Positions 1,498 to 31,228 of a stretch of 64,000 bases of DNA are shown in pieces. Origin of the DNA: a bacterium (GTDB taxonomy: Bacteria > Patescibacteriota > Minisyncoccia > UBA6257 > UBA9933); assembly GCA_030693235.1 (NCBI GenBank), contig JAUYBE010000016.1, forward strand, positions 35,917-99,916, read 5' to 3'. The notes beneath the pieces are model-generated. The model had not been told where the DNA came from and made no database searches. It saw only the letters and a list, made by a program, of their open reading frames with translations. The translations under genes were made by a program, and so were the position numbers. Positions within the stretch are counted from its first letter, which is position 1. Each line of letters opens with the position of its first letter.

Positions 1498-1575
1498 AGA
1501 TTGCCACGAACGCCTGCGGCGTTCTCGCAACGACACTTCGTGTCGGATTGCTTCGGGCTACGCCCTCGCAATGAC
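1441..1575. repeat. palindromic dispersed element, family 1, copy B (pth 3' end and pth-wbaP spacer)
   Basis: gtcattgcaag/gtcattgcgag (1441, 1458), cgaagcaatc (1482), gattgcttcg (1546), ctcgcaatgac (1565). Confidence 0.65.
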
Positions 1576-2848
1576 AATAATTAATATGACAAAATTTAAA
1601 ACAGCGATAATTATTCTGGGAGACATAACAATACTCTATCTTTCTTTAATTTTGACCCTGATTATCCGTTATGGTCAGGATTCTTTCAAAGAGCCTCTCG
1701 CCGCTCACTTAAAACCATTTTCATTGATTTTCCTCGTCTGGATACTGATTTTTTACCTTTTTGACCTTTATAAAGATAGACAATTCAGGATTAGCTTTGA
1801 AACAATTCGGATACTAATTTTGGCGATTTCCACAAGCGTCATCGCTTCGGTTATTTTCTTCTATCTTTTCCCATCGCTTTTCAAACTCACGCCTAAAACC
1901 AATCTGGCGATTTTCGCCTTAATTTTCGGCATTTCAGACATTCTTTGGCGATTTATCCTGATTAAAATCTATGTTTCCGGCGGCTTTAAAAACCGACTGC
2001 AAATTATCGGCGATTCGCCGATAATCAATGAAATTGTCGATTATTTGAAAAACAATCCCCAACTCGGCTATGACCTCAAAAATAATCAAGCGGACACCAT
2101 TGTTATTCAATCGCATCTCAAAAAAAATCCGGAATTCATCAAAACGATCTATCAATTGCTTCCGAAAAAAATCGCTGTGATTGACTTAATAACGTTTTAC
2201 GAAACTATTTTTCAAAAAGTGCCACTGGAAGAGCTTGAAGAGGGTTGGTTTATTGAAAAAATAACCACTTATCGAAATTTTTACGACGCCGCCAAAAGAA
2301 CAATCGATTTCTGTTTGGCGCTGTTTTTAAATATTATTTTTCTGCCGCTAATCCTTATTATCGCTCTTCTGATAAAATCAACTTCCAAGGGGCCTATAAT
2401 TTTCAAACAAGAAAGAACCGGCGTCGATAACAAACCTTTTATCCTTTTTAAATTCAGAACTATGAAAATCAACGAGCCCGGCCCTCTTTGGACCGATAAA
2501 AACGACAAACGCCTGACTCGAATAGGCAAAATCCTCCGCTACACTCATCTGGATGAACTCCCTCAAGTGTATAACATTTTTAAAGGAGAAATGTCTTTTA
2601 TCGGACCACGGGCGGAAAGAAAAGAACTGACCGAGCTTTACAGTCAAATCCCCTATTATGAAATCCGCCACATCATAAAACCGGGTCTTACCGGCTGGGC
2701 GCAAGTCAATTACAAGCCCAGCGCCTCGGTTAAAGAAGCGGCTGAAAAACTGCAGTATGACATTTATTACATCAAAAACCGCTCGCTGATTCTTGATTTT
2801 CTAATTCTTCTTAAAACTATTAAATATCTATTCGTATCGTTAAAATGA
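1571..2848 (+). CDS. undecaprenyl-phosphate sugar phosphotransferase (WbaP/WcaJ-like initiating transferase, bacterial sugar transferase domain)
   Basis: C-terminal domain KGPIIFKQERTGVDNKPFILFKFRTM...DELPQVYNIFKGEMSFIGPRAERKE...PGLTGWAQV with N-terminal TM helices. The tracked ORF starts at 1439 inside repeat B. The likely true start is ATG 1571 (MTIINMTKFK). Confidence 0.8.
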   Translation: MTIINMTKFKTAIIILGDITILYLSLILTLIIRYGQDSFKEPLAAHLKPFSLIFLVWILIFYLFDLYKDRQFRISFETIRILILAISTSVIASVIFFYLFPSLFKLTPKTNLAIFALIFGISDILWRFILIKIYVSGGFKNRLQIIGDSPIINEIVDYLKNNPQLGYDLKNNQADTIVIQSHLKKNPEFIKTIYQLLPKKIAVIDLITFYETIFQKVPLEELEEGWFIEKITTYRNFYDAAKRTIDFCLALFLNIIFLPLILIIALLIKSTSKGPIIFKQERTGVDNKPFILFKFRTMKINEPGPLWTDKNDKRLTRIGKILRYTHLDELPQVYNIFKGEMSFIGPRAERKELTELYSQIPYYEIRHIIKPGLTGWAQVNYKPSASVKEAAEKLQYDIYYIKNRSLILDFLILLKTIKYLFVSLK

Positions 2849-4314
2849 TCACCCGCTTAAAAGAACTGCTTTTCCAAAACCGCGGCGCTAAACAAACAAT
2901 CGTAAAAAATGTTTTTTGGCTAAGCGTCGGACAAATTGGGAGCCGCCTGATAAGAGCGGCTATTATAATTTACGCGGCGCGGATTTTAGGCGCGGCTGAA
3001 TACGGAATTTTTTCCTATATTATAGGATTAGCGGGGTTTTTCACGATTTTCGCGGACCTGGGCATAAGCCCGCTAATGACGCGCGAAATCGCCAGCCACC
3101 CGGAAAAACGTTCAATCTATTTTGCCAACGCTCTGCGGATCAAAGCCGTCTTAATTTCCATTACCGCCGCCTTGATTGTTTTTGTCGCCCCGAAATTTTC
3201 AAACATTGAAGAAGCGATTGCTTTACTGCCATTTGTCGCTCTGCTTGTTATTTTTGATAATTTACGGGATTTTATTTTCGCTTATTTCCGAGGAATTGAA
3301 AAGATGGAACGAGAAGCTTTTCTGACGGTGATTATGAACGCGACAATCGCTTTAACCGGTTTTATAATTTTGTATTTCTATAAAACCACCGGCGCTTTGC
3401 TGTTTTCATATATCGCCAGCGTGGCCATTTTAAGCATTGTCTCTTTTTATTTCATTAAAGATTTAATCAAGGGCATATTTAAAAATTTTGACAAAATGAT
3501 TTTTAAACAATTCATCCGCGATTGCTGGCCATTAGCTTTTACGGGATTATTCGGAATTTTTATGCTGAATATTGATATTGTAATGCTCGGCTGGTGGCGG
3601 ACGCCGGAAGAAATCGGCTATTATTCAGCCAGCCAGCGCATTGTCCAGATACTTTATACCTTACCGGCAATACTCGCCGGCGCGGCCTTTCCGGCGATGA
3701 CGCGTTTTATCAAACAAAACGAATTGATCCGAGCGCGTAATTTAAACGAAAAATCAATGACTTTTTTATATCTTATCGCCGTTCCTTTGGCGATTGGAGG
3801 AGTTATTTTAAGCAGTCCTCTTATAGAATTTATTTTCGGAAAAGCGTATTTACCGGCGGCCATATCGTTTCAAATATTAATTACTACCGTACTTATACAA
3901 TTCCCGGGCGCCATTTTCAGCAATTTAATAATGGCGCACAATCAACAAAAAAAATTCATTAAATATGTGGCTATCGGCTCATTTAGTAATGTGTTTTTCA
4001 ACACTTTGCTTATCCCTTTGTATGGCATTAGCGGCTCGGCAATCGCCACTCTTATTTCACAATTTGCTTATTTTGCGCCGGTTTGGGTTAAAATAAAACA
4101 AATTAGCGACTTTAAAACTATTCGCCACTTAAAAAAAATAATCGTTGCCGGAGTTGTTATGGGAATATTCGGATATTTCTTGAACCGCTTTTTCGGATTG
4201 AACGTCCTTATTAACATAATTCTCTCCGCCATAATTTATTTCGGAATTCTTTATTTACTCAAAGAAAATATTTTAGAAGAATTAAAATCGCTTTTATCAA
4301 GAGCCAAAAAATAA
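2845..4314 (+). CDS. polysaccharide biosynthesis protein, Wzx-type flippase (MOP superfamily)
   Basis: 489 aa polytopic membrane protein. N-terminus KNVFWLSVGQIGSRLIRAAIIIYAARILGAAEYG is typical of Wzx/RfbX. 4-nt overlap with the upstream transferase. Confidence 0.7.
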   Translation: MITRLKELLFQNRGAKQTIVKNVFWLSVGQIGSRLIRAAIIIYAARILGAAEYGIFSYIIGLAGFFTIFADLGISPLMTREIASHPEKRSIYFANALRIKAVLISITAALIVFVAPKFSNIEEAIALLPFVALLVIFDNLRDFIFAYFRGIEKMEREAFLTVIMNATIALTGFIILYFYKTTGALLFSYIASVAILSIVSFYFIKDLIKGIFKNFDKMIFKQFIRDCWPLAFTGLFGIFMLNIDIVMLGWWRTPEEIGYYSASQRIVQILYTLPAILAGAAFPAMTRFIKQNELIRARNLNEKSMTFLYLIAVPLAIGGVILSSPLIEFIFGKAYLPAAISFQILITTVLIQFPGAIFSNLIMAHNQQKKFIKYVAIGSFSNVFFNTLLIPLYGISGSAIATLISQFAYFAPVWVKIKQISDFKTIRHLKKIIVAGVVMGIFGYFLNRFFGLNVLINIILSAIIYFGILYLLKENILEELKSLLSRAKK

Positions 4315-5526
4315 CTTTTCTAATTTATTCAAAATCACGTCAACGGCTAAATTTTCAGAAGCATATTTAAAGCCGTTTTCTCCTATTTCTTTTAATCTAT
4401 CTTTCTCCGCGTAAATCTTGCGCGTTATTTTCTCGGCTTCTTCTAAATCATCTGACTTTACGGCATATCCGCATCCCACTTCATTTAATACGGCGAATCC
4501 ATCGCTTTCTTTATTTAAAAAAGCGATAATCGGCTTACCGGCCGCCATATACCCTAAAATTTTCCCCGGCACGAAAGATGTCTTGTTTTTGCTATTTAAA
4601 CAAACCATACCGACATCACTGTCTTTGACCAAATAAGGGTACTCCTCTTTTGAAACAAATGGCTTAATAACGATATTTTTAAGCGAATGTTTATTTATAA
4701 ATTCTTCAATTTTCGGCTTTTCGCTCCCGTCGCCGACCAATAAAAACACCAAATCCTTTAAATCCGCGACTTTTTGCGCAACTTCGCAAACAAATTCCAA
4801 ACCCTGAGCCGGCCCCATAATGCCGCCGAAAAGAATTATAAACTTGCTTTCTAATCCGTATTTTTTCCTAAAAGAAATATCTTTTGTTAAATTTTTGAAC
4901 GGTTCAATGTCAATCCAATTATGCAAAGTAACGATTTTTTCTTCGGGAACGCCTTTTTTCTCAATTAAAAATTTGCGGCCGCCTTCGGAATGAAAAGTGA
5001 TTTTGTCCGCTTCTTTGTAAACTTTTTTCTCTATCCGCTCGAAAAGCCAAACAGCCGGCTTATGTTTCCATCCCTTAAGCACCCCCAAATCAATGGCGTT
5101 CTGAGGAAAAATATCTTGAATGTTTAAAATGAATTTTGCGCCATAATAACGCTTAATCATTCCGCCGACCAAAGCCAATGGCAAGGGAGGACTATAGACA
5201 ATCACAACGTCCAGCTTTTCTCGAATATATTTTTTTATTTTAAAAAAAAACAAAAAAGGCAGAAAAAGCTGCGAAACGCCTCTGATGATAAAATTTACCT
5301 TTTTTAAAGGAAGCGTCTTAATTCTGATTATTTTAATGCCGGCCTCGTCGGAAAACAATTCAAATTTCTGGCCTTCCAACTCTTTCGGCAAATAATATTT
5401 TGGATAAGCAGTGGCGACCAAAATATTATGGCCGCGCTTTTTAAGGCCTTCGGCAAGCTCCTTCATTAAATTAGCGGCCGAAGAAACTTCCGGAGGATAA
5501 ACATCGGCGACAACAAGAATATTCAT
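4297..5526 (-). CDS. glycosyltransferase family 4 (GT-B, Glycos_transf_1)
   Basis: VFLLVGDGSEKPKIEEF...GKILGYMAAGKPIIAF, the typical GT4 C-terminal domain. Confidence 0.8.
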   Translation of the reverse strand: MNILVVADVYPPEVSSAANLMKELAEGLKKRGHNILVATAYPKYYLPKELEGQKFELFSDEAGIKIIRIKTLPLKKVNFIIRGVSQLFLPFLFFFKIKKYIREKLDVVIVYSPPLPLALVGGMIKRYYGAKFILNIQDIFPQNAIDLGVLKGWKHKPAVWLFERIEKKVYKEADKITFHSEGGRKFLIEKKGVPEEKIVTLHNWIDIEPFKNLTKDISFRKKYGLESKFIILFGGIMGPAQGLEFVCEVAQKVADLKDLVFLLVGDGSEKPKIEEFINKHSLKNIVIKPFVSKEEYPYLVKDSDVGMVCLNSKNKTSFVPGKILGYMAAGKPIIAFLNKESDGFAVLNEVGCGYAVKSDDLEEAEKITRKIYAEKDRLKEIGENGFKYASENLAVDVILNKLEKLFFGS

Positions 5527-6656
5527 TCGCGTCTTTTTTGAATAATTTTAGTTAAACCGACAATCAGCCGCAAAACCTTGCCGGAAACATTAGTATCGCG
5601 ATAATTTCTTGGCACATTGAATTTTTCGCCTGCTTTTAATTGTTTAGTTGTGATTTCAATTGCTTGTAAAATAATATTTTTATCCAAGCCCGACAAAATT
5701 AAAACTCCTTCATCAAACGCTTCGGGCCGTTCCGAACTTTCCCTTACCTGAACTGCCGGAAAACCTATAAGCGACGATTCTTCCTGAATCGTGCCGCTAT
5801 CGGACAAAACACAAAAAGCGTTTTTCTGCAAACTAACATAATCGAAATATCCGAATGGTTTATGAAAATTTATCAATTTATTCGCTTTAAACCCATATTC
5901 TTTTAATCTGCCGGCGGTTCTCGGATGAGTGCTTACCATAATCGGCATTTTATAAGTTTCCGCCACGGCATTTAATGAATTAATAAGTTTTTCCAAAGAT
6001 TCTTTTGCGTCCACGTTTTCTTCCCTGTGGATGCTAGCCACAAAATATTTTCCCTTGATTAATTTCAATTCATTCAAAATTTTTGATTTATCAATGTCTT
6101 TTTCATAGTAATCTAAAACTTCAGCCATTGGCGAACCGGTAACATAAATTGTTCCCGGATGAATACCTTCACGAATCAAATATATCCGGGCATTTTCGCT
6201 GTAGGGCAAATTTATATCGCTTATGTGGTCAACAATGCGGCGGTTTATTTCTTCCGGAACATTCTCGTCAAAACATCTGTTGCCGGCTTCCATATGGAAT
6301 ATCGGTATTTTCATTCTTTTAGCGATAATCGCCGAAAGAGCGCTGTTTGTATCTCCCAAAATCAAAATCGCGTCCGGCATTTCTTTTTGCAAAACTTCTT
6401 CGCTTTTTGAAATTATGTTGGCAATCTGGCCTCCCAAAGTTTCGGATTTCACTTCTAGAAAATAATCCGGCTTACGGATTTTTAGATTTTCAAAAAAAAC
6501 TTTATTTAATTCATAATCGTAGCTCTGCCCCGTATGGACCATAATATGATTTACATATTGGTCCAACTTCGCCAAAATCCGCGAAAGCCGAATAATTTCC
6601 GGCCGCGTGCCGAAAATCGTCATTATTTTCAATTTATTTATTTTATTGTTTTTCAT
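5523..6656 (-). CDS. UDP-N-acetylglucosamine 2-epimerase, non-hydrolysing (WecB/FnlC/CapG-like)
   Basis: FGTRPEIIRL, HTGQSYDYELNKVFFE, ILGDTNSALSAIIAKRMKIPIFHMEAGNRCFD, YVTGSPMAEVL. Confidence 0.85.
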   Translation of the reverse strand: MKNNKINKLKIMTIFGTRPEIIRLSRILAKLDQYVNHIMVHTGQSYDYELNKVFFENLKIRKPDYFLEVKSETLGGQIANIISKSEEVLQKEMPDAILILGDTNSALSAIIAKRMKIPIFHMEAGNRCFDENVPEEINRRIVDHISDINLPYSENARIYLIREGIHPGTIYVTGSPMAEVLDYYEKDIDKSKILNELKLIKGKYFVASIHREENVDAKESLEKLINSLNAVAETYKMPIMVSTHPRTAGRLKEYGFKANKLINFHKPFGYFDYVSLQKNAFCVLSDSGTIQEESSLIGFPAVQVRESSERPEAFDEGVLILSGLDKNIILQAIEITTKQLKAGEKFNVPRNYRDTNVSGKVLRLIVGLTKIIQKRRE

Positions 6657-6658
6657 AT

Positions 6659-7054: not shown

Positions 7055-7069
7055 AATTTGCGATATAAA

Positions 7070-7801: not shown

Positions 7802-7802
7802 T

Positions 7803-8837: not shown

Positions 8838-8867
8838 ATCTTTATTATATCCGATTATAATTTTATA

Positions 8868-8960
8868 TCAATTTCCGCGAGATTTGGTTTTCGTTTCATA
8901 AATTTTCGCGTCCACCAAAAACCTATACCAAAAACCTTGCAAAAAGTTGTTTTTTTTTAT
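8868..8960 (-). pseudogene. remnant of a GT2 glycosyltransferase C-terminus (paralog of the 12817-13707 C-terminus)
   Basis: The minus-strand frame reads FLQGFWYRFLVDAKIYETKTKSRGN-stop, against the intact GT2 C-terminus HFLQGCWYRFLVDAKLYEAKNKSKQ. There is no start codon. An upstream T9/A9 homopolymer lies at 8950-8958. Confidence 0.4.
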
Positions 8961-9672: not shown

Positions 9673-9682
9673 TATTTCGAGT

Positions 9683-13707: not shown

Positions 13708-13718
13708 AAATTTTTCGT

Positions 13719-16779: not shown

Positions 16780-18067
16780 TTTTTCGCTTTATTAAAAAAT
16801 AATGTATTATCAGCAATAATATAAAAATTTTGACCAATCCCGCGTAAACCGGCGCAATCCAATCTTCCATTCCCTTGATAATATTAAGCCATAAAATACT
16901 ATAAATCATTACTCCCGAGAACGAGATGCCGGTTCTTTTGATAAGATATTCATAAATCAAACGAAACAGCATTCCCATAAAAAACATTCCGAAAATAATG
17001 CCTAAAACGCCAAAATTCATATACCAGTCGCCAACAATAGTCACCCCAACGGTTGATTTTACGCTCGGCGCTAAAAGACCCGAACGGTGTCCAAAGTCGC
17101 CGCCTCCGCTGATAATGGGCTTATTCGTCCAAATAAATCGAGGGGGTCCCAAGCTGATAAAAAAATTCAATAATGGTTTGCCGTACAATAAAGGCTCATC
17201 CATTTCAACAATTCTTGAGAAAACAGTAAATTGGTCTATTCTGGAAAAAATACTGTCAAAAGTAAGGTTGCCCGCGTTTTTAGCATAAGTCAAAGAATTT
17301 TCTATGTTTTCAATTGGTCTTTCCGCCAATGAATAATGGCGTAAAATTTCCGGACTTCGGCAAGCATTGCCAAGTGGAAATACTACAATTATTGCTCCTA
17401 AAATTATAATAACAATCTGTTGCCAAGTAACGCGTGAAAAATAAGATTTCAATATAAGATAAAGAATAATCGGCATTATTACGGAAGTTCGATTGCATGA
17501 CGGCAAAGTGTAAACCATTTCCAATATAAATGTTCCCCAGGCTATTTTTTGCCACAAACGATAACGCGCGTCGTTGTTTTTTTTGAAATAAAAATAACTT
17601 GTAAACGCAATAATCAGGGCGACATAAGACAACCAATCAAAAATTCCAAGCAAGCTGTAAAAAGGACTATTTTGAAACCATGGATTTTGTTGCCAATAAG
17701 AATAAACTCCGCCGAAAATTCTTAAAATTTTTATACCCAAGCCCAAAACAAAGACAACCCCAAAAACCCAAAACGCTTTTTTAAAATCCCACTCTGAATC
17801 TAATTTTAAAAATTTAGGTAGCCGTCCGGCAATAGAAGATGTTTGGCGATTATAATACCCGATCGCAAAAAAAATAAGGCCAAGAGTTAGATAAAAAAGC
17901 GCCTTATAATAAACAACTGAATTTTCCCATAAAAATCCGCGAACGCCGAAAAAAAACAAAATTGACGTAAAATAAAAAATAAAAAAATAATACAATATGA
18001 CGGAATTGCCAAGTTCAAAAAAATCAAAAGATTTTACCTTATTTTTGAGCCAAACCGCTATTTTCAT
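16754..18067 (-). CDS. polytopic membrane protein, putative O-antigen polymerase (Wzy-like)
   Basis: 437 aa, at least 10 predicted TM helices. Its position in a glycan locus next to Wzx and GTs supports the call. No strong motif. Confidence 0.45.
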   Translation of the reverse strand: MKIAVWLKNKVKSFDFFELGNSVILYYFFIFYFTSILFFFGVRGFLWENSVVYYKALFYLTLGLIFFAIGYYNRQTSSIAGRLPKFLKLDSEWDFKKAFWVFGVVFVLGLGIKILRIFGGVYSYWQQNPWFQNSPFYSLLGIFDWLSYVALIIAFTSYFYFKKNNDARYRLWQKIAWGTFILEMVYTLPSCNRTSVIMPIILYLILKSYFSRVTWQQIVIIILGAIIVVFPLGNACRSPEILRHYSLAERPIENIENSLTYAKNAGNLTFDSIFSRIDQFTVFSRIVEMDEPLLYGKPLLNFFISLGPPRFIWTNKPIISGGGDFGHRSGLLAPSVKSTVGVTIVGDWYMNFGVLGIIFGMFFMGMLFRLIYEYLIKRTGISFSGVMIYSILWLNIIKGMEDWIAPVYAGLVKIFILLLIIHYFLIKRKNENFTHSS

Positions 18068-18959
18068 ATGTAAAATCTGGTATTTTGCCCCTCACTAATG
18101 GATAAAAACGCTTACAGCTGGTACATTTATATGCATCGCCAGATTTCACCAAGGGTTTGCCGCAATTAACACAAATCAAATACTTGATTAGATCTATCTT
18201 TTTATTACGAGAATTTTGAGAAAAAAAGCGGCGAAATAAAAATAAAATTGCCTTATTGAATCGGGTTTTTAAACTCAATTTCCCCGCCTCGGAAGAGCCG
18301 GGCATAGCTGACGGCGGTTCCCAATCAAATTTATATTCCGGATTTAAGATTTGATATTTTATTCCGCCGAACTCTTTGCTCCAATAATATCTGACATGGA
18401 AATTAAACGGGTATTTAGAAAATAAATATGGAGCTATTCCGCGCGCCTTGTTTTTAAAAAGTTTCCACAATTCCTCGTCTTGAATGTGTCCCTTTTTTTT
18501 GCGAATGATAAGCGCACCATCAACGTCGGTTATCTCAAGCATATGAAACCTATAATTAGTTAACCGTTCCATAAATGCATCGGGAACTTCAATATATCCA
18601 GCCCTCCCCACTCTTTGTATTTCCTCTAAAAATTTTTTAGGATCCGCCGAATGCTCCAAAACATGCGAAGCTATTACAAAATCAAACACGCCGTCTTTAA
18701 AGGGCAACCGTTCCGCCCTTGCGAGAATGATCGGCCTATCGGCAATGAGCGCTTCAAAAAACCTTTCTTCGGTTTCTAGATACGCATCGCAAAGCACATT
18801 CGCCCGATAATATGGGTTCCCGCCACTGCCAACATCCAAAACCAAATCGTCTTTTTTGACCGGGCAATAAAGCCGACGCAATGACCACGCAATTGAATCT
18901 TGCCCAATGAATCTAAAAAACCTCATCAAACTGCTCTCTTTTTTAATAATTGTTGACAT
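18039..18959 (-). CDS. class I SAM-dependent methyltransferase with C-terminal zinc-ribbon
   Basis: LDVGSGGNPYYRANV ... FDFVIASHVLEHSADP. C-terminal CVNCGKPL...CTSCKRFYPL is a CxxC...CxxC ribbon. Confidence 0.7.
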   Translation of the reverse strand: MSTIIKKESSLMRFFRFIGQDSIAWSLRRLYCPVKKDDLVLDVGSGGNPYYRANVLCDAYLETEERFFEALIADRPIILARAERLPFKDGVFDFVIASHVLEHSADPKKFLEEIQRVGRAGYIEVPDAFMERLTNYRFHMLEITDVDGALIIRKKKGHIQDEELWKLFKNKARGIAPYLFSKYPFNFHVRYYWSKEFGGIKYQILNPEYKFDWEPPSAMPGSSEAGKLSLKTRFNKAILFLFRRFFSQNSRNKKIDLIKYLICVNCGKPLVKSGDAYKCTSCKRFYPLVRGKIPDFTYENSGLAQK

Positions 18960-18969
18960 AAAAAAGTTC

Positions 18970-19992
18970 CTATAAGCGCGGCGTCCTCCCTAAAATATTT
19001 TTTATTATTCTTATTCCCAAATCACAAAATTTTTTACCAAATATTATCAAAAATAGCACGTACATATAATAATAGGGGGTGATATTAAAACCCAATTTAT
19101 TAAGCCCGCGCGCATATTCCAAAAAAACCGCAAGCCCCTCTTCTCTATGAATAGATAAGCTGGGATAAGAATATTTTGATAAATCAAGCATTATTTTTCT
19201 CGTAGAATGAAATCCATGCTTCTGGTCCATAAACTTGGCAATTTTTATATAGCCGCTTAAAAAATTTAAGGAGCGCTTTAAATCTGCCCGCCTTGCGACC
19301 AACTTCCCGGTCTCCTCGTCATACATTAATTCTTTTGCCCTATAACTTTTATTTTCTACGTGACGCGTAATCGGCTCATCAAAATAAGCTGCTCTACTAT
19401 TCAAAACAAGTTCCGCAACCCAATATATTTGGATAAGCGCGGCGCCGTCAAAATAATCCACCAAATATGGCAGAATCGGCTCGCGTTTTATAGTGAAACC
19501 GGAAATAAAAACGCTTTTCCTAAAAAGCTCTTCGTATGTTTTTTCTCCCGGTTCAAAAAATTTATTTCCACTATAATACCGGAACTTTTCTGTCTTACCG
19601 TCATCATGCACCACCTCATAAGACCGAAGCACATAGGTAACTTCATCGTGCTCTTTTAGAAAAGTAATTAATTTATTGAGTTTTTCGGGAATAAACTCAT
19701 CGTCATCACCCATAAAAACGAGCCATTTCCCGCTCGCCGCCTTCACCGTCTCCTTAAGATTACCGTCATACCCAAGATTTTTTTCATTCTCGTGATAAAC
19801 TACGGAATACTTAGATTCTTTTCTAAATTGTTCTACGGTTTTTTTAATCTCTTCGCGCCGAGGACTAAAATCATCACTCACCACTACTTCTATTTCGTTT
19901 AGATTATCAGCGTCTATAGTTTTAAGCAACTGATATAATTTATCGGGACGATTATAGGCGGGAATACAAATTGATATAAATGGATTTTTCAT
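18970..19992 (-). CDS. glycosyltransferase family 2
   Basis: ISICIPAYNRPDKLYQLLKTIDADNLNEIEVVVSDDFS. Confidence 0.75.
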   Translation of the reverse strand: MKNPFISICIPAYNRPDKLYQLLKTIDADNLNEIEVVVSDDFSPRREEIKKTVEQFRKESKYSVVYHENEKNLGYDGNLKETVKAASGKWLVFMGDDDEFIPEKLNKLITFLKEHDEVTYVLRSYEVVHDDGKTEKFRYYSGNKFFEPGEKTYEELFRKSVFISGFTIKREPILPYLVDYFDGAALIQIYWVAELVLNSRAAYFDEPITRHVENKSYRAKELMYDEETGKLVARRADLKRSLNFLSGYIKIAKFMDQKHGFHSTRKIMLDLSKYSYPSLSIHREEGLAVFLEYARGLNKLGFNITPYYYMYVLFLIIFGKKFCDLGIRIIKNILGRTPRL

Positions 19993-19999
19993 TAATAAT

Positions 20000-20914
20000 T
20001 TATTTGTTTACGCGCTTAGCAAAAAGCATTCCCACATACATATCTTTATATTCCCCTTGTCTCTCCGGAACATAGACGTGGGTTGGTTTTGTATAGCTGA
20101 CTGCAAACCCTGCCGCATTTAATCGCCTTTCCAAATTTTCAAACCCGTAATGATATTCTGCGATGAAAAATTCAAACCGTCGAAGAAATTCATCTTTGGT
20201 ATTCTCCAAGATGTCGTATTCCCAACCTTCACAATCTATTTTCAGTACGCCGTCACTAATATTATATTTTTCAACTATTGACTCAATAGTTATCACAGGA
20301 ACATCATGAGTAAAATCAAACTCACTCTTAATTGATGAATATGCTCCAATCACGACCTTAAAAAATGGGTCAAAAGAAATGTCCGCAAGTATAGTGCGAC
20401 CGACGCCAGCATGGATAATATCACAAACAGAATCCAGTTGATTTAATGAAATATTTTCTCGTGCTAACCCAACGCAACTCAGTACAGGTTCGATACCAAC
20501 AACCTTCTTGGCGCCAAGTGTCGCGAAATACACGGGCGTGTCGCCAAACGAGGCGCCGATATCAACTACGACTCTGTTTGATAAATCTATTCCTTTCAAA
20601 AAAACTTCGTAGCTTCCCCATCCAAAAACCTCACAAAGAGAAATTGGTTCAAAATTGCCGCAATTAAATACTAATGTTTTGCCTTTATAATTTATAGTCG
20701 CCCTCGTTCCTTCGATTTTTCCATCCGGAAAATATCTAAAAAAATCTAAATTATGAACGAACATCCCGAAGGTTTGGGTATTTACTTTAATTGAAAATCC
20801 ACTGCGAAAGCGCGCAGTCGCGCCTCTTTTCAAAATGATTGAACCCAAAATTACAGACGGCCAATTCTTCACATAAAGAATAATCTTGATGGCAACTTTC
20901 AATTTTCCAAACAT
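20000..20914 (-). CDS. FkbM-family methyltransferase
   Basis: VVDIGASFGDTPVYFATLGAKKVVGIEP, a Methyltransf_21-type motif. Confidence 0.65.
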   Translation of the reverse strand: MFGKLKVAIKIILYVKNWPSVILGSIILKRGATARFRSGFSIKVNTQTFGMFVHNLDFFRYFPDGKIEGTRATINYKGKTLVFNCGNFEPISLCEVFGWGSYEVFLKGIDLSNRVVVDIGASFGDTPVYFATLGAKKVVGIEPVLSCVGLARENISLNQLDSVCDIIHAGVGRTILADISFDPFFKVVIGAYSSIKSEFDFTHDVPVITIESIVEKYNISDGVLKIDCEGWEYDILENTKDEFLRRFEFFIAEYHYGFENLERRLNAAGFAVSYTKPTHVYVPERQGEYKDMYVGMLFAKRVNK

Positions 20915-23155: not shown

Positions 23156-23163
23156 GTTAAAAA

Positions 23164-24432: not shown

Positions 24433-24467
24433 AGTTTAAAGATAATATCAAATTTTAAAAATAATGT

Positions 24468-25529: not shown

Positions 25530-25533
25530 CCTT

Positions 25534-26466: not shown

Positions 26467-26491
26467 AACTATCGTCTTTGACGATAATCTC

Positions 26492-27541
26492 TTACAAAGT
26501 TTTTTCTAACATTTTTGAAAGCTGCGACTTCATGCTATACCCACTCTTCAAACAACGCTCTCTTCCGGCGGACGCGATTCTCTTTCTCTCTTCTTCGCGC
26601 TCCAAATAGTATTTCACTTTTTTAAACATTTCCTCATTTGAGCTAAAAAATTCGGCCTCTTTCCCCTCTTCAAAAAATTCCAAATGACGCTTCGTGCGCT
26701 CTCCCAGCATAAACCCGCCGCAGGCCGGTATCTCAACGCTTCTCGAGGTAACCTCATCGCGATTTATCTTTCGCAAAAAATTAAGATTGATTTTGGTAGC
26801 GGAAATTGCTTTTGCATAATCAGAGCCAAAAAGAAATTTATTTTTCACATCAAGGTTTTTGTGGCGATTAATCCACGCGTCCCAACCGCTGCCCCACACT
26901 GCGACTTTCACGCCATGCTCGGCAAGATACAAAAGCGATTCAGCTCTTTCTTTCTCAAATGCTCCGATCGCGCTCACATCGCAGGAAAACCGCGCCTTTT
27001 CTTCGTCAGTTAGTTGTATTGGCTTATGCGCGTTCTCACTATACGAATCCAAGAAAAGTTCCGTTCTCTTGGCACCGAGAGATTTCAACTCCTCGAGATT
27101 ATAAGTTTTGGTCGTAAAGACAACCTCGTAGTATTTAAGTCCCCACATGTAATGAAAAGACCTGTTGTGTTTAGCGTACATATCATCCTCCGAAACAGAA
27201 ATTAATTTTGCCTCCGACAAATGCTTTTTTATAAATTTTAGAGTCGCCGGCAGAATCGTGTTCCCTTTTTCTATCCAAACTACATCAAATTTATCTTTGA
27301 GAACTTCTTGCTTTATTTTTTTATTTACACCAACCATGTCCACCGGAATTTTTAATCGCCAAGAAATAACCTCAATTAAACTTCGATTCTTCCGTGGACT
27401 CCATGGAACCTCGGTATGAGAAATTCCAAAAACCTCGCGACCTAACCCAATTAAGGTTTCATATCTTTGAAAACCGCGCCCATACTCGTTTAGATCTCCA
27501 ACATATAGAATCTTAAGGTTTTTACTATTTTTCCGTTTCAT
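26492..27541 (-). CDS. CgeB-family glycosyltransferase-like protein (DUF3880/Glyco_trans_1_2-type)
   Basis: The C-terminal region EIPACGGFMLGERTKRHLEFFEEGKEAEFFSSNEEMFKKVKYYLEREEERKRIASAGRERC is typical of the CgeB family. Confidence 0.45.
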   Translation of the reverse strand: MKRKNSKNLKILYVGDLNEYGRGFQRYETLIGLGREVFGISHTEVPWSPRKNRSLIEVISWRLKIPVDMVGVNKKIKQEVLKDKFDVVWIEKGNTILPATLKFIKKHLSEAKLISVSEDDMYAKHNRSFHYMWGLKYYEVVFTTKTYNLEELKSLGAKRTELFLDSYSENAHKPIQLTDEEKARFSCDVSAIGAFEKERAESLLYLAEHGVKVAVWGSGWDAWINRHKNLDVKNKFLFGSDYAKAISATKINLNFLRKINRDEVTSRSVEIPACGGFMLGERTKRHLEFFEEGKEAEFFSSNEEMFKKVKYYLEREEERKRIASAGRERCLKSGYSMKSQLSKMLEKTL

Positions 27542-28254
27542 CTCTTCGCTAAAACTAATAAATTTTGAGTTAAAATCCCTCTAAAAGATCCTGTCTCTGC
27601 CACCAAATAAAACCTCAAGAACAGCTCAAAAAACATCCATATCACATAACGAAAAAATGATTTTATTCCACGTATAATAGGCCGCTGCGGAAAAACTAGC
27701 ACATTCTTAAATCCCGCAATCATGAGTAATTGTCGAATTGAACTTTCGGTAAATGCTTGTTCGTGAGTAAAATCGCCATGACGAATTTTTCCCCACAACA
27801 GACTTTCTGCATTTGTAGTTTGAATAATAAACGACCCATCCTCTACCAAGCTAAGGGCAGCCTGCTTGCAAAAATTAATCGCGTCATTTTTTCCAAAATG
27901 TTCCAAAACATCGCGCGCAAAAATTGTATCATAACTATTGATATTTTTTGGAAGTTCTTTAAAAATATCGCCCTCATATATATCCGAAAATCCAGCACGC
28001 TTGCCAGCTAAAATTTGTTCGGCACTTATGTCAACTCCTCTTATTTTGTTAAATCCAACATATTTAAGCCAAAATAGAAAATCTCCGGTTCCGCAACCCG
28101 CATCTAAAATCTTTGCATTTTTATCGTTTGGCAATAATTTACCAAAATAGCTATTCCATGTGGCAAAATGCATTCTCGCATCATTCAGGGCGGTTTTACT
28201 ATACAGATTTGCCATGTGAGTAGAAACGTATTCTTTATAGAGCTCTTTATTCAT
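27538..28254 (-). CDS. class I SAM-dependent methyltransferase
   Basis: ILDAGCGTGDFLFWL (motif I) ... YDTIFARDVLEHF ... LVEDGSFII. Confidence 0.7.
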   Translation of the reverse strand: MNKELYKEYVSTHMANLYSKTALNDARMHFATWNSYFGKLLPNDKNAKILDAGCGTGDFLFWLKYVGFNKIRGVDISAEQILAGKRAGFSDIYEGDIFKELPKNINSYDTIFARDVLEHFGKNDAINFCKQAALSLVEDGSFIIQTTNAESLLWGKIRHGDFTHEQAFTESSIRQLLMIAGFKNVLVFPQRPIIRGIKSFFRYVIWMFFELFLRFYLVAETGSFRGILTQNLLVLAKR

Positions 28255-28296
28255 TTAATGTTATTTATTTTTAATAAATGGATATTTCCCTAATTA

Positions 28297-29361
28297 TTAT
28301 TTTTCCCCCTTCAATAAACTAAGTAGTAGCTGTGTTCTCCTACTAAAGCTTTGCAATCCAAATACTTCTATGATTTTATGGCGTAATAATACCCTATCGT
28401 ATAACCGCTTATCAAGCATGCCGCCAAGCAATGCAATTATTGTCGCCGAAATATCTTCTATGCTATCTGGATCAACTAACATTCCAAGTTCTCCATTTAG
28501 AAGAGCTTCCTTCGCGCCCTTTTGTTTCCCTCCCACTACAGAAACCCCGCATGAGAGCGCTTCAAGTAAAACTATCGGCGGGAATCCTTCGTTTTTTGAA
28601 GGGAGAACAAAAACATTAGCGAGATTATAATAATCTACGATTTCTTCGTTGGTTGGCGCTTCTGCTAAAACTACATTTTTCTCAAGTTTTAATTCGGTAA
28701 TCAATTGTTTTACCGCGGAAATGTCGTCTCCGCTGCCAACCAAAAGATATTTTACGTTTGGTATAGCTTCCAAAACTTTGGGCATGGCTTTAATCACCCT
28801 TTGATAACCCTTATTGTCGCCATCCAACTTAGACATTCGCCCGATTGTCAAAATTATTTTTGAGCCCTTCAAACCAAAACGCGAAAGCAATTTTTCAGAT
28901 TTTTCTTTTATCTCAAATTTTTGACCATCAACGGAATTCGGCAGATTGAACAATTTCTTTTCTATCTCAGGAATCTGTCTTATTACGTTCTCTGCTGTAG
29001 CGTTAAATAAGTAAATAATTGTATCTGCCTCTCTCAGCGCGCGTTTAAAAATTTGTTTTTTTATATTGATTACCTCTATTCCATAAACAGAAACGCTATA
29101 AGAAAAATTGAGAAACCTTTTAAGATATAAGCAAATCGGGGAAAAGTGAAGGTGCGCGCATATGACAAAATCAGGACGATGCGTCGCCGCAGAGAATATC
29201 ACGCGAATAAAAAATGATGTTTTTGCTAATAATCCTCCGTGCTGTCGTTCTACCACAATCACGTCTTGTTCAAGTTCTCGGAGCGTCGCGATCAAATTGC
29301 GATTATATTTTTCAATTCCGCCAATTTGATTCACATCTGCGGCAATGTAAAGAATTTTCAT
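28297..29361 (-). CDS. glycosyltransferase family 4
   Basis: ILTIGRMSKLDG...KYLLVGSGDD...LPSKNEGFPPIVLLEALSCGVSVVG. Confidence 0.75.
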   Translation of the reverse strand: MKILYIAADVNQIGGIEKYNRNLIATLRELEQDVIVVERQHGGLLAKTSFFIRVIFSAATHRPDFVICAHLHFSPICLYLKRFLNFSYSVSVYGIEVINIKKQIFKRALREADTIIYLFNATAENVIRQIPEIEKKLFNLPNSVDGQKFEIKEKSEKLLSRFGLKGSKIILTIGRMSKLDGDNKGYQRVIKAMPKVLEAIPNVKYLLVGSGDDISAVKQLITELKLEKNVVLAEAPTNEEIVDYYNLANVFVLPSKNEGFPPIVLLEALSCGVSVVGGKQKGAKEALLNGELGMLVDPDSIEDISATIIALLGGMLDKRLYDRVLLRHKIIEVFGLQSFSRRTQLLLSLLKGEK

Positions 29362-29365
29362 ATTT

Positions 29366-31228
29366 TTAAAATTTATTTAAAACCGCTTTCGCCCAAGAAC
29401 GGGACCAATGGGATTTAGTATTTTGTATTTGGTATTTTGTATCTTGTATCTCGCGAAGCCAGTTTTGAAACGGAAAAGTAAAACCCATTTTTGGACGGGT
29501 GAAAATTTCTTGAGGCAATAAATCGCGAACCGCGGCGACGAGAAGGGGCTTATTTATGTTTTTTAGTTCTTTAGTTTTTAAGTTTTTAAGTTTTAAGTTT
29601 GCGGGCAAACTGCTTAAATATTCAACCAGCGGGTGGTCCAAAAACGGCACCCGGACTTCAACCGAATGACGCATTGACATAAAATCGGTGTCTTTAAGCA
29701 ATTGGTTTTGAAGATAGAATTTAAGTTCAAGATAGGAAAGAAGGCCAATTGGATGTAATTGTTCTAAGTGTTGTAATTGATGCGATAATTTATCTATAAA
29801 ATTATTTACTTCTTGAACATTAGTATCTAAAATCTTCGCGGTTTCTTGAGGAGTGAATAAGCCCCTAATCCCTAAATAAAAACTTAAAATATCGTCATTG
29901 GTAAAATAACTTAATTTAGAATACTTGTCGCCAAATAAACTGCCCAATTTTAGCGGAGATTTTAAAAATTTCGGCAAATTCTGGATTTTTCTTAGTAATT
30001 CCGCCCGGCGAAAATGCGGATAACCCAAAAATATTTCATCCGCTCCTAGTCCGGAAAGAACGGTTTTTAACCCGGCCTGCTTGGCCGCCTTGGCGATAAA
30101 AAAAGTGTTGACGCCGTCTATTGTCGGCTGATCCATCGCTTCAAAAATTTCTTCAAACGAATCGTAAAAATCCTGTTTTGTTATCTTTATTTTGCGATGG
30201 TCGCTGCCTATCTTTTTTGCGACCAAGTCCGAATAATATTCTTCGGAAAATTCTGGTTCGTCGAAAATAATTGATAAAGTTTTAAGACGCTGATTTTTTA
30301 TAGTTTGAGCCGCCAGCGCCGCAATCACCGACGAATCCAATCCGCCGCTTAAAAATACGCCCAAAGGCGCGTCGCTGATAAGATGAAGATTGACGGATTC
30401 TTCTAAAAGACTTCGAATACTATCACGTGTGATAGTATTATCCTGAAAGTTCTGTGTTTTGTTTTTGAAAAATTCTAAAGGCTCATAATATTGAATTAAT
30501 TTTTGACTGCCGTCAGCTTCTCGGACTAAATAATGTCCGGCCGGCACAGCATAAACATTTTTTATCGTAGTTGTCGGTAACGGCACCGAGCCGAAAAGTA
30601 AAAAACCGATATAAGCGTCGGGGTTTTTTTGAACCAGTATTATTCCGCTGTTTTCCAGCGCCTTAACCGTTGAAGCGAAAATTAATTTTTCATTATCCGA
30701 ATAATAATAAAGGGGTTTAATGCCGTATCTGTCTTTAACTAAAAATAATTTTTGATTTTTGCCATCCCAAAGTCCAAAAGCGAACATCCCGCGAAGCATT
30801 TCAAAAGATTTTTCGCCGCATTCGGCGTATAAAGCTAAAATCACCTCGGTATCGGTTTTTGTTTTGAATTTATATCCCTTTTTCTCTAAATCTTTTTTTA
30901 ATTCCAAAAAATTATAGATTTCTCCGCTGTAGGTTATTACTAATGTCTGGACATCCGACGTCCTAAAATTACCGCCAATATTTGGGACGTCGGATGTCCT
31001 TAAAATTGACCCATTTTGCCAAATCATCGGTTGGTGGCCAGACTTTGAAAGGTCGATAATAGAAAGCCGGGAGTGCCCCAGCGCAACACCGTTTTTTACA
31101 TCAACAAAAACGCCTTCGTCGTCTGGACCGCGATTTTTCTGGGAGGTGTTCATTTTCCCCGCTGCCGCTTCCAAATCTTTTTTATTATAAATTTTTTTAT
31201 TTTGATAAATTCCGGCAATGCCGCACAT
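29366..31228 (-). CDS. asnB: asparagine synthase (glutamine-hydrolysing), glycan-locus amidotransferase type, carrying in-frame repeat insertions
   Basis: MCGIAGIY N-terminal nucleophile, SGGLDSS PP-loop, 620 aa. Insertions: family-2 palindrome 30949-30999 (RTSDVPNIGGNFRTSDVQ), and tandem oligomers at 29560-29600 (LKLKNLKTKELKN) and 29425-29455 (IQDTKYQIQNTK). Confidence 0.85.
   Translation of the reverse strand: MCGIAGIYQNKKIYNKKDLEAAAGKMNTSQKNRGPDDEGVFVDVKNGVALGHSRLSIIDLSKSGHQPMIWQNGSILRTSDVPNIGGNFRTSDVQTLVITYSGEIYNFLELKKDLEKKGYKFKTKTDTEVILALYAECGEKSFEMLRGMFAFGLWDGKNQKLFLVKDRYGIKPLYYYSDNEKLIFASTVKALENSGIILVQKNPDAYIGFLLFGSVPLPTTTIKNVYAVPAGHYLVREADGSQKLIQYYEPLEFFKNKTQNFQDNTITRDSIRSLLEESVNLHLISDAPLGVFLSGGLDSSVIAALAAQTIKNQRLKTLSIIFDEPEFSEEYYSDLVAKKIGSDHRKIKITKQDFYDSFEEIFEAMDQPTIDGVNTFFIAKAAKQAGLKTVLSGLGADEIFLGYPHFRRAELLRKIQNLPKFLKSPLKLGSLFGDKYSKLSYFTNDDILSFYLGIRGLFTPQETAKILDTNVQEVNNFIDKLSHQLQHLEQLHPIGLLSYLELKFYLQNQLLKDTDFMSMRHSVEVRVPFLDHPLVEYLSSLPANLKLKNLKTKELKNINKPLLVAAVRDLLPQEIFTRPKMGFTFPFQNWLREIQDTKYQIQNTKSHWSRSWAKAVLNKF
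30949..30999. repeat. twin-palindrome element, family 2, in-frame in asnB
   Basis: ggacatccgacgtcc taaaattaccgccaatattt gggacgtcggatgtcc. Same architecture as 13299-13350. Confidence 0.7.

Follow-up and report, generated by a model that had tools for sequence, protein, structure and literature searches.

The 64,000-nucleotide (nt) stretch of contig JAUYBE010000016.1 analyzed here, called the window below, carries between positions 1571 and 37005 what we hold, with good confidence, to be one chromosomal locus that builds a cell-surface heteroglycan by the Wzx/Wzy route and attaches it. The cluster is a real and fairly ordinary surface-sugar locus of the Wzx/Wzy type, and its least ordinary trait is the small selfish DNA lying in-frame within several of its genes. 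Scans with Pfam and NCBIfam, covering all open reading frames (ORFs) of at least 100 amino acids (aa) between 1 and 45000, gave a glycan-pathway family to 23 of 28 consecutive ORFs, a run far beyond chance, and nearly all genes of the locus share one orientation with small gaps between them. An earlier note on this DNA, written from its letters alone, had recognized a Wzx/Wzy-type glycan locus rich in methyltransferases; the initiating transferase, Wzx, Wzy, glycosyltransferases and methyltransferases were all confirmed at the family level, and the gene content that it listed is nearly completely in place.

We propose the following working of the locus. A phosphoglycosyl transferase (PGT) of the WbaP/WcaJ class would prime polyprenyl phosphate, seven glycosyltransferases (three GT4, three GT2 and one CgeB-like) would build the repeat unit, Wzx would flip it and Wzy would polymerise it, and a Wzy_C protein of WaaL fold would transfer the polymer to its acceptor. 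This acceptor may be the peptidoglycan (PG)-anchored hypervariable surface protein encoded beside Wzy_C and its transmembrane (TM)-TPR partner. A UDP-L-FucNAc-type 2-acetamido-2,6-dideoxyhexose would be supplied by FnlA, a two-piece FnlB and FnlC, and a GDP-6-deoxyhexose with a 3-C-methyl branch would come from Gmd, a C-methyltransferase and a Gmd paralogue acting as reductase. Four S-adenosylmethionine (SAM) methyltransferases would add O-methyl decorations, and AsnB would add an amide group. Such a system would resemble the S-layer or surface-protein O-glycosylation of Gram-positive bacteria. Besides, the locus has in this lineage acquired several in-frame palindromic elements, of which one carries a GxxExxY nuclease, as well as a LamG-NlpC/P60 gene that is now broken, a Fic gene and a toxin-antitoxin pair.

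The host is known as a metagenome-assembled genome (MAG) of the Patescibacteria (Paceibacterota/Parcubacteria). Its ClpB (38048-40762, minus strand) is 66 to 80% identical to ClpB proteins of MAGs labelled Patescibacteria, Paceibacterota, Wolfebacteria, Jorgensenbacteria or Liptonbacteria. This kinship, together with the housekeeping genes across the remaining window (signal peptidase, Pth, ComM, ParA/ParB, CCA-adding enzyme, RNase Y, RNase J and eight tRNA genes), identifies chromosomal DNA of an ultra-small, Parcubacteria-type bacterium of the candidate phyla radiation (CPR). GC content is ~0.38, and an Rfam scan returned tRNAs only.

Fixed site, conserved ends and an exchanged centre

Relatives' loci bear L-numbers and database proteins P-numbers, P0001 being the 643-aa ORF of the window and P0002 its counterpart in L081. 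L081 and L086 both come from a single 50-kb JGI contig, which encodes a ClpB 80% identical to that of the window; L082 is a Hainich groundwater contig from well H41, and L083, L084 and L085 are three metagenome loci found through Wzy (44 to 47% identity).

As judged by gene order, the locus is shown to occupy one fixed place in the chromosome, with lepB-pth and clpB as its neighbours, and not to be a newly acquired island. This is because both flanks of the L081/L086 contig, signal peptidase (SPase)-Pth on one side and ClpB on the other, match those of the window. L086 runs Gmd, Gmd paralogue, NUDIX, FkbM, a 243-aa protein, GT2 plus methyltransferase, Wzy, GT4, methyltransferase, GT2, a mini-dehydrogenase and GFO/IDH/MocA, and then GT4, epimerase, Wzx, PGT, Pth, SPase and HisRS (histidyl-tRNA synthetase). 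L081 runs GT2, HtrA, ClpB, membrane protein, surface protein, Wzy_C, 23S_rRNA_IVP, a homologue of the 188-aa protein unk188, epimerase, AsnB, ManC, GT4 and CgeB-like. Identities between these two stretches and the window are high for Gmd (87%), Wzx (75%), GT2a (73%) and the mini-dehydrogenase (71%), intermediate for PGT (67%), Wzy (63%), AsnB (63%) and the CgeB-like protein (62%), and low for GT4c (46%), GT2c (37%) and FkbM (36%). The Fnl genes have no counterpart in L081 or L086, and remnants of the L086 NUDIX and GFO_IDH_MocA genes were looked for in the window and not found. Within the window, no integrase and no flanking tRNA gene mark the locus borders, the nearest tRNA gene lying at 46436. 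The term island used in the earlier note is thus given up.

On the clpB side, the order clpB, ~250-aa membrane protein, surface protein, (Wzy_C paralogue), Wzy_C, 188-aa homologue is found in L002, L019, L028, L029, L039, L040, L045 and L081. L004 keeps it as far as Wzy_C, and no unk188 homologue was found there. In these relatives the surface protein is 1100 to 1150 aa long (Thr/Ser/Ala-rich, with PG_binding_1), Wzy_C ~450 aa and its TM-helical partner ~190 aa; a larger Wzy_C paralogue is sometimes present. This order is conserved in at least nine relatives with ClpB identities of 66 to 80%, while the downstream genes change: the gene next to the 188-aa homologue is AsnB in L039 and L045, an epimerase followed by AsnB in L081, and a C-methyltransferase with Gmd in L019. 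By this conserved order beside clpB, the locus extends to about 37005 (~35.5 kb), ending with the Wzy_C gene, its TM-TPR partner and the PG-binding surface protein, and not to stop at 31228 (~30 kb) as first described. It follows that the RelE/RelB pair, correctly recognized but placed downstream of the locus, lies inside it, since the 188-aa gene, Wzy_C and the surface protein belong to the locus. The gene between this module and clpB is the following.

37333-38160, minus: conserved ~250-aa polytopic membrane protein, its gene flanked by clpB and the gene of the surface protein; orthologues 33 to 50% identical at the same position

Its orthologues hold the matching position in L001, L002, L003, L007, L010 and L081, with ORFs of similar size there in further relatives, and it matches no Pfam family even at relaxed thresholds.

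Towards the other end, L083 to L085 keep the gene order of the window across the GT4b-PGT stretch and run AsnB..GT4c-methyltransferase..Wzy..GT4b-GT2a-FnlA-FnlB(N)-FnlB(C)-FnlC-GT4a-Wzx-PGT. The centre is different. For the variable-centre genes (18039..20914), relatives have either no counterpart or counterparts 29 to 51% identical. The wzy gene (16788-18069) and L082 (2622-3918) share 92.2% nucleotide identity over exactly wzy and none on either side; the L082 neighbours of wzy are unrelated or 34 to 51% identical, and the neighbouring Wzx is 45% identical. Such DNA identity between unrelated flanks argues for a gene-sized exchange. Altogether, comparison of these loci shows that the ends are conserved and that the centre has been reshuffled by gene-sized exchange. 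This agrees with the view of a variable, gene-exchanging region in the earlier note, and the full conservation among relatives that would have spoken against it was not seen.

Composition agrees with such a mosaic, with a mean GC at third codon positions (GC3) of ~0.34 against 0.43 to 0.46 in housekeeping genes. Backbone genes are near-genomic (0.37 to 0.43), and values of 0.25 to 0.31 occur in LamG, the methyltransferase at 12115, the mini-dehydrogenase, Fic, GT4b and several centre genes; clearly low values are confined to inserted or variable genes, the inserted genes being lowest.

The encoded pathway

Assembly of the repeat unit would rely on the following genes, listed together with a conserved 310-aa protein that stands among them.

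1571-2848, plus: initiating polyprenyl-phosphate glycosyl-1-phosphate transferase (PF02397, E 4e-62; TIGR03025, 330 bits against a cutoff of 296)
2845-4314, plus: Wzx flippase, MOP family (PF01943, 123 bits; PF13440, 90 bits; 75% identity in L084 and L086)
4297-5526, minus: GT4a glycosyltransferase, conserved backbone (PF13439 and PF00534; identity 80% in L084, 54% in L086)
12817-13707, minus: GT2a glycosyltransferase (PF00535), with two in-frame palindromic inserts
15601-16779, minus: GT4b glycosyltransferase (PF00534, E 2.6e-40); orthologues 45 to 58% identical adjoin wzy in L083-L086
16754-18067, minus: Wzy repeat-unit polymerase (PF01901, 32 bits against a cutoff of 24.2; 63% identity in L086)
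18970-19992, minus: GT2b (Pfam), in the variable centre
24468-25529, minus: GT2c (Pfam)
25534-26466, minus: conserved 310-aa protein, adjoining GT2c also in L082 and L086 at 34 to 39% identity
26492-27541, minus: CgeB-like glycosyltransferase (Pfam; 62% identity in L081)
28297-29361, minus: GT4c (Pfam; 46% identity in L081)

The ORF of the initiating transferase opens at a GTG at 1439, and the ATG at 1571 gives a 425-aa protein, near the 432 aa of the L086 orthologue; orthologues 67 to 71% identical stand at the matching locus end in L084 and L086. The NCBIfam equivalogs for Wzx match the flippase weakly. Wzy orthologues hold an equivalent relative position in L083 to L086. Where four GT4 enzymes had been claimed, three were found (starts 4297, 15601 and 28297); the estimate of three to four GT2 enzymes holds for three (starts 12817, 18970 and 24468) and fails for the fourth. 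The 310-aa ORF has no Pfam match even at relaxed thresholds, and no solved structure matches it; motifs alone point to a methyltransferase, and it was not counted as one. Hence four generic SAM methyltransferases and the C-methyltransferase were retained instead of the five to six methyltransferases first listed.

Sugar supply and modification would be served by the following genes, among which the mini-dehydrogenase-like protein also stands.

5523-6656, minus: UDP-GlcNAc 2-epimerase, FnlC/WecB type (PF02350, E 1.5e-92; TIGR00236, 257 bits against a cutoff of 210; 82% identity in L083-L085)
6659-7801, minus: FnlB/CapF-type reductase-epimerase in two ORFs, a short-chain dehydrogenase/reductase (SDR) half (7070-7801) and a cupin-like C-terminal half (6659-7054)
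7803-8837, minus: FnlA-like UDP-GlcNAc 4,6-dehydratase/5-epimerase (PF02719, E 3e-99; TIGR04130, 427 bits against an equivalog cutoff of 730; 79% identity in L083-L085)
12115-12729, minus: SAM methyltransferase, Methyltransf_11 (Pfam, E 1.6e-23; 60 to 62% identity in L083 and L085; GC 0.31, GC3 0.25)
14910-15614, minus: mini nucleotide-sugar-dehydrogenase-like protein, 234 aa (PF00984, weak; best PDB match the UDP-ManNAcA dehydrogenase 4r16, E 4e-5)
18039-18959, minus: methyltransferase (Pfam)
20000-20914, minus: FkbM-type methyltransferase (Pfam)
21136-22137, minus: Gmd paralogue (TIGR01472, 336 bits, under the cutoff of 415; 62% identity in L086)
22121-23155, minus: Gmd (TIGR01472, 557 bits; identity 87% in L086, 84% in L019)
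23164-24432, minus: TylC3/TcaB9-type sugar 3-C-methyltransferase (full-length match to the mycarose 3-C-methyltransferase 4rv9, E 3.6e-58, and likewise to TcaB9)
27538-28254, minus: methyltransferase (Pfam)
29366-31228, minus: AsnB-type glutamine amidotransferase (PF00733, PF13537; TIGR01536, 444 bits), with an in-frame palindromic insert at 30944-31021

The three Fnl gene types announced in the earlier note are present, with FnlB as two ORFs. Its halves are parted by an in-frame TAA (7070-7072) and match positions 2-240 and 252-366 of the WbcJ model, scoring 157 and 110 bits against the NCBIfam equivalog cutoff of 500. The gene is split at a common site, after YKTYLS[YH], in four genomes, those of the window, L083 (11147-12250), L084 (15315-16407) and L085 (4708-5811), and the junction sequences differ: TAA TAA ATG in L083 and L085, overlapping frames in L084. 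Judging from these four genomes, the split is an old conserved gene fission. We rejected a pseudogene on the grounds of the common split site and of the 66 to 87% conservation of both halves. FnlA, FnlB and FnlC are all 66 to 87% identical to their L083-L085 counterparts; this conservation and the gene order in relatives support a working module.

Adjacency of the C-methyltransferase to Gmd recurs in L019 (C-methyltransferase 61%, Gmd 84% identity). A reductase role for the Gmd paralogue is a guess. The earlier note pointed to amidation of uronic acids by AsnB; a full-length dehydrogenase that would form such acids was not found in the locus. The mini-dehydrogenase combines a Rossmann fold with a central domain carrying a GGHC motif and has no C-terminal domain. 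The protein, listed in the earlier note as a mini UDP-glucose dehydrogenase (UGDH)-like one, is no oddity of this locus and belongs to a conserved ~234-aa family within the glycan loci of relatives, widespread in Patescibacteria: there are 1540 homologues, the best 120 of which all measure 220 to 298 aa at 58 to 84% identity, and one lies in the L086 glycan locus (71% identity). A truncated UGDH pseudogene was therefore rejected, given this large family of uniform proteins. Beside it in L086 (10001-12359) and in L087 stands a 542-aa GFO/IDH/MocA gene.

The Wzy_C module and selfish DNA

The clpB-proximal end of the locus encodes a putative transfer module.

31828-32394, minus: 188-aa protein (unk188), conserved partner of Wzy_C; a single TM helix is joined to a helical domain that weakly resembles TPR
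32391-34322, minus: Wzy_C protein of WaaL fold, 643 aa, candidate ligase or O-oligosaccharyltransferase (PF04932, 68 bits against a cutoff of 31.7)
35113-37005, minus: PG-binding surface protein, Thr/Ser/Ala-rich, 630 aa (PF01471, PG_binding_1)

The AlphaFold (AF2) model of the Wzy_C protein has a pLDDT of 79, and its only significant match in the PDB (Foldseek) is WaaL (7tpg, E 3.7e-5). R266, R291, D386, R387 and H389 are invariant in 57 orthologues. CPR bacteria are reported to be without lpxC, kdsA and other lipid A/lipopolysaccharide (LPS) genes (PMC5220378), which makes a strict WaaL role, with a lipid A-core acceptor, unlikely. The 188-aa homologue directly follows Wzy_C in L002, L019, L028, L029, L039, L040 and L045, and a 23S_rRNA_IVP gene stands between them in L081; its TPR matches are weak, even at relaxed Pfam thresholds. 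In P0084, P0089 and P0105 it is fused to the C terminus of Wzy_C. These fusions argue for a functional tie between the two proteins and suggest that they may form a two-part transferase.

The surface protein consists of a signal/TM segment, a coiled coil, PG_binding_1, an (ATP)n linker and a variable domain. Its first 145 to 160 aa are 51 to 75% identical to counterparts in eight relatives (L004, L019, L028, L029, L039, L040, L045 and L081), while the remaining exposed domain is unrelated among genomes and the whole protein, at 630 aa, is half as long as the 1100 to 1150 aa of relatives. A conserved anchor with an unrelated exposed domain is typical of a surface antigen. The distinct codon composition attributed to this gene was recovered (GC3 0.23 against ~0.44 in housekeeping genes), and near it, at 34969-35006, is a strong hairpin terminator. 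Here and in no fewer than nine relatives, the gene adjoins the Wzy_C gene(s), and it is this conserved adjacency to a WaaL-fold gene that makes the surface protein a candidate acceptor. We found no description of CPR O-antigen ligases or of Patescibacteria S-layer glycosylation in the open-access literature that we searched.

The Wzy_C gene itself hosts in-frame selfish DNA.

32547-33062, minus: in-frame GxxExxY (PD-(D/E)XK) nuclease cassette within the Wzy_C gene (PF13366, E 1e-31; TIGR04256)
34071-34154, minus: in-frame solo hairpin insert at Wzy_C aa 57-84, where the first cytoplasmic loop is predicted; absent in seven of ten orthologues

The cassette is a 172-aa insertion at Wzy_C aa 421-592, before the last two TM helices, with a complete GxxExxY/PDDEXK_3 domain and an unbroken reading frame throughout. 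It is absent from 117 of the 120 best orthologues, which are ~420 to 550 aa long against 643 aa. Its left arm (33015-33062, GCGGACT units) and right arm (32547-32624, AGTCCGC units) are inverted arrays of a ~9-nt unit, complementary to each other, and pair into a long stem (RNA fold z-score -5.1). AlphaFold models the Wzy_C core well and the inserted domain poorly (pLDDT 40 to 60). From helix alternation and charge we infer that the three insert sites of Wzy_C would be cytoplasmic loops, away from the catalytic face. P0002 (L081) and P0013 keep a nuclease insertion at the same Wzy_C site, the L081 architecture being alike; in L081 a GT4 gene houses another cassette, whose repeat unit is different (cassettes at 11273-11858 and 19113-19590).

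An exhaustive phmmer search of a 1.84-billion-protein library with the 131-aa nuclease domain returned 7458 relatives, and ~28 of the 33 best (E up to 1e-30; P0361-P0388) are embedded in larger proteins. Pfam scans of 20 nuclease-host proteins besides the window protein gave the following hosts and sites.

RecG, n = 7: between helicase motifs II and III
LepA (EF4) and other EF-Tu-type GTPases, n = 4: inside the G domain
GT4, n = 3: within the GT4 C-terminal domain or immediately ahead of it
GatB, n = 1: inside GatB_N
AsnB, n = 1: between GATase and Asn_synthase
GT2, n = 1: inside Glycos_transf_2
RtcB, LeuRS (leucyl-tRNA synthetase) and one further protein of no assigned family, n = 1 each: site not resolved

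Inspection of flanks in a wider set of top matches brought the numbers at shared sites to ~9 RecG, seven to eight GTPases, two GatB and two GT2 proteins. The layout is common to them: a left arm read as T-x-T-x-A-D/E repeats, the nuclease domain, and a right arm read as R-x-S-A repeats, with catalytic columns at least 90% conserved. The named hosts are Liptonbacteria and Paceibacterota. Pfam detected no Hint splicing domain in the window protein or in the 20 other hosts, only PDDEXK_3 plus host domains. An intein was rejected: there is no Hint, the insert of ~150 to 190 aa including arms leaves no room for one, and the junction residues are repeat-derived. NCBI names whole host proteins 'GxxExxY protein', among them P0001 (Wzy_C ligase-like), GatB and LeuRS (P0378, P0382), which hides their real identity.

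Cargo-less in-frame hairpins of the cassette kind lie in Wzy_C (34071-34154; dG -43 kcal/mol, z-score -4.8, with repeats), GT2a (13510-13563) and ClpB (39380-39454); GT2_526, beside clpB, has an in-frame hairpin of a different sequence type (41053-41166). A second palindrome type, with the motif GGACATCCGATGTCC twice, occurs in GT2a and AsnB. In alignment with L083 to L085, the GT2a inserts 13510-13563 and 13288-13359 are window-specific. So is the AsnB insert 30944-31021, and the GGACATCCGATGTCC element occupies three different AsnB positions in three genomes (window, L081, L045). Strict matching of hairpin-derived peptides by regular expression recovered the ClpB case only; in a survey of indels against orthologues, six of the eight window-specific indels of at least 7 aa are strongly hairpin-forming (z <= -2.5). 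In-frame palindromic elements resembling those of Rickettsia (RPE) are thus present, in-frame, missing from orthologues, and in several genes including the housekeeping clpB.

In-frame GxxExxY cassettes are not described in the open-access literature that we searched, where GxxExxY/PDDEXK_3 appears only in passing mentions. Tentatively, and aware that the balance may tip the other way, we suggest that they are an undescribed class of Paceibacterota selfish element, a nuclease gene between inverted short-repeat arrays, inserted in-frame at recurrent loop sites and kept unspliced in the protein, the cargo-less hairpins of ClpB, AsnB, GT2 and Wzy_C being footprints or landing sites. Excision of the stem-flanked cassette from the RNA, for which the nuclease would act with a ligase such as RtcB, is unlikely because the in-frame arrangement is consistent.

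Other non-glycan genes have entered the locus.

9085-12085, minus: lineage-specific block of a 195-aa membrane-anchored protein (9085-9672) and a broken LamG-NlpC/P60 (C40 peptidase) gene (Pfam)
13719-14771, minus: Fic-domain protein, lineage-specific insertion (PF02661)
14825-14905, minus: relic duplicate of the GT2a 5' end (~75 nt) upstream of fic, by alignment with 13630-13710 and the L084 GT2a start
31247-31818, minus: toxin-antitoxin pair inside the locus, RelE (31247-31507; TIGR02385, 43 bits against a cutoff of 28) and RelB (31504-31818)
34357-34827, minus: 23S_rRNA_IVP (four-helix-bundle) gene (PF05635, E 6e-34), flanked by 8-nt repeat arrays

As the earlier note supposed, fic and LamG-NlpC/P60 are unrelated elements embedded in the locus, and so is RelBE; all three are missing at matching positions in relatives, hence insertions. 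In L083 to L085, GT2a abuts FnlA where the window has the block 9085-12085, and GT4b abuts GT2a or a methyltransferase where the window has fic; RelBE is missing between the 188-aa homologue and AsnB in L039, L045 and L081. The hydrolase was rightly identified, although it is carried by two ORFs of one frame, LamG (10988-12085) and NlpC/P60 (9683-10945), parted by a single TAG (10988-10990, TGG to TAG). Seven fused homologues (784 to 815 aa) align with the whole length of the read-through product at 54 to 60% identity, with Trp at the stop position in all seven, and the downstream 420 codons remain open (LamG-part GC3 0.25). The kept Trp and the open frame indicate that the TAG is a recent change, a polymorphism or a sequencing error. 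In the Fic motif (aa 281-292, QPFEDGNKRTAR), Gln replaces the expected catalytic His, and the protein may be no active AMPylase. The GT2a relic is 88% identical to L084 over 58 nt and nearer to the L084 GT2a start than the working copy is; on this alignment it marks the rearrangement that brought in fic. RelB scores 21.9 bits with PF04221, just below the cutoff of 22.4, and the relE and relB genes overlap by 4 nt. The 23S_rRNA_IVP gene, a neighbour of Wzy_C, is bracketed (34334-34971) by arrays of the 8-nt repeat AGTTTAAT / AAGTTTAA and appears to be a second small mobile cassette. Its L081 homologue lies on the opposite side of Wzy_C.

Alternatives, known systems and significance

The same pathway could make a capsule-like or wall-linked polysaccharide, with Wzy_C ligating it to a lipid or wall acceptor, or acting as a second polymerase, and with the surface protein as a bystander. 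This is possible, although we doubt it. Wzy_C membership and the WaaL fold do not tell ligases from protein O-oligosaccharyltransferases, two or three tandem Wzy_C paralogues in several relatives suggest more than one acceptor or function, and a surface protein whose variable domain is unrelated among genomes would be an odd conserved substrate. However, with lipid A/LPS genes reported missing from CPR bacteria (PMC5220378), the classical WaaL acceptor would be lacking; no LCP-family wall ligase was seen among the scanned ORFs, and the order of surface protein, Wzy_C and partner is held in at least nine genomes (ClpB 66 to 80%) despite changing downstream genes. Less probable still are two or more independent glycan pathways side by side, a PGT-proximal FucNAc polymer and a clpB-proximal methylated 6-deoxyhexose protein glycan. 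For one repeat unit, seven glycosyltransferases and two proteins of polymerase/ligase type are a large number, each conserved end varies among relatives independently of the other, and a promoter-like site (11 of 12 matches) precedes fnlA at 8871-8844. Yet the window has a single PGT, a single Wzx and a single PF01901 Wzy, and its co-oriented genes are closely spaced; promoter-like sites exceed the number expected from shuffled sequence by only ~2 standard deviations in 1-19500, and in 19000-38500 they match it.

A recently acquired mobile genomic island would account for a GC3 below that of the flanking housekeeping genes and for the toxin-antitoxin pair, Fic and selfish cassettes within the region, but it is very improbable in view of the homologous locus between matching flanks in a relative with ClpB 80% identical, of boundaries of which neither has an integrase or tRNA gene, and of near-genomic backbone GC3 (0.37 to 0.43). 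We give equally little credit to a decaying, non-functional locus, in which the in-frame TAA of fnlB, the in-frame TAG of LamG-NlpC/P60 and the 172-aa insertion in Wzy_C would all be signs of pseudogenisation: the fnlB split site is common to four genomes with halves 66 to 87% conserved, the cassette leaves the Wzy_C frame unbroken, P0002 and P0013 retain the insertion, and the single true nonsense change found lies in a gene outside the glycan pathway (LamG-NlpC/P60).

A single locus that builds and attaches a surface heteroglycan thus remains our preferred explanation, and several points weigh against it. Its product, acceptor and sugars are read from the genes of an uncultured organism, and we know of no glycosylation sequon for CPR bacteria. 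FnlA and both FnlB halves score under the NCBIfam equivalog cutoffs, making the exact sugar uncertain. The Gmd paralogue is nearer to dehydratases (1rpn, 295 bits) than to the solved reductase Rmd (2pk3, 106 bits), and the window has no gene for GDP-mannose pyrophosphorylase, though L081 has one. The 172-aa insertion may affect the predicted transferase activity of Wzy_C, and in a MAG a single-base feature such as the TAG may be a population variant or an error.

Wzx/Wzy glycan loci are well known, and our analysis bounds this one more clearly, places it at a fixed site and documents its mosaic history. The O-antigen and capsule loci of Salmonella (rfb, galF-gnd) and Streptococcus pneumoniae (cps, dexB-aliA) share with the present locus PGT, Wzx, Wzy, glycosyltransferases and NDP-sugar genes, as well as a fixed chromosomal site, conserved ends and an exchanged mosaic centre. 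In contrast, the host belongs to the CPR, a group reported to lack LPS, no Wzz or CpsBCD-type chain-length/export apparatus is present, the locus itself includes a gene of WaaL fold and that of a candidate acceptor protein, and its genes contain in-frame selfish elements. The slg loci of Paenibacillus alvei and Geobacillus stearothermophilus encode a WsfP/WsaP initiator and a Wzy_C-domain oligosaccharyltransferase (WsfB/WsaB) for S-layer O-glycosylation. The window resembles them in its WbaP-like initiator, glycosyltransferases and methyltransferases, in a Wzy_C-domain transferase with or near a candidate surface protein, and in a single-membrane envelope; unlike them, it is known from genes alone, its anchor is PG_binding_1 and not SLH, and a TM-TPR partner, sometimes fused to the transferase, is present.

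For the sugars, the three enzyme types of the FnlABC / CapEFG / WbjBCD route to UDP-L-FucNAc are adjacent and in the usual order here too, whereas FnlB is made of separate SDR and cupin-like polypeptides (in four related loci) and FnlA falls under its equivalog cutoff. The window C-methyltransferase is a full-length three-domain enzyme like TylC3, TcaB9 and the mycarose methyltransferase 4rv9; those act on dTDP-sugars in antibiotic pathways, whereas carrier and product here would be those that gene adjacency suggests. A GDP-mannose-derived route to virenose has been proposed in Coxiella burnetii, and here the C-methyltransferase stands beside Gmd and a Gmd-like SDR.

The cassettes have relatives in kind. 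ShiLan is a non-splicing homing insertion in a phage methylase (PMC11855218). Like it, and like Rickettsia palindromic elements and inteins, the cassettes are in-frame selfish DNA at tolerated loops, with recurrent housekeeping-gene sites and an associated nuclease; they differ in a GxxExxY PD-(D/E)XK domain in the host frame, inverted short-repeat arrays and the lack of Hint. Their architecture recalls ORF-bearing 23S rRNA intervening sequences, and ORF-bearing intervening sequences, including the 23S_rRNA_IVP family, are known in CPR rRNA genes (PMC11270868). A member of that family (34357-34827) adjoins Wzy_C in the window.

According to a Parcubacteria genome paper, the structure of the envelope and the way it forms "remain unclear"; glycoproteins or a glycosylated S-layer are that paper's guess (PMC5220378). 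The locus turns this guess into a testable model. Its conserved module of surface protein, WaaL-fold transferase and TM-TPR partner beside a variable sugar region is the layout expected if antigen and glycan vary under host or phage pressure. The surface protein-ligase-partner module deserves follow-up, as do, above all, the in-frame nuclease cassettes. If these form a true mobile class, they would be a non-splicing counterpart to inteins, and would explain why a GatB, a LeuRS and a ligase-like protein are named 'GxxExxY protein' at NCBI. The locus shows small genomes tolerating selfish DNA inside genes.

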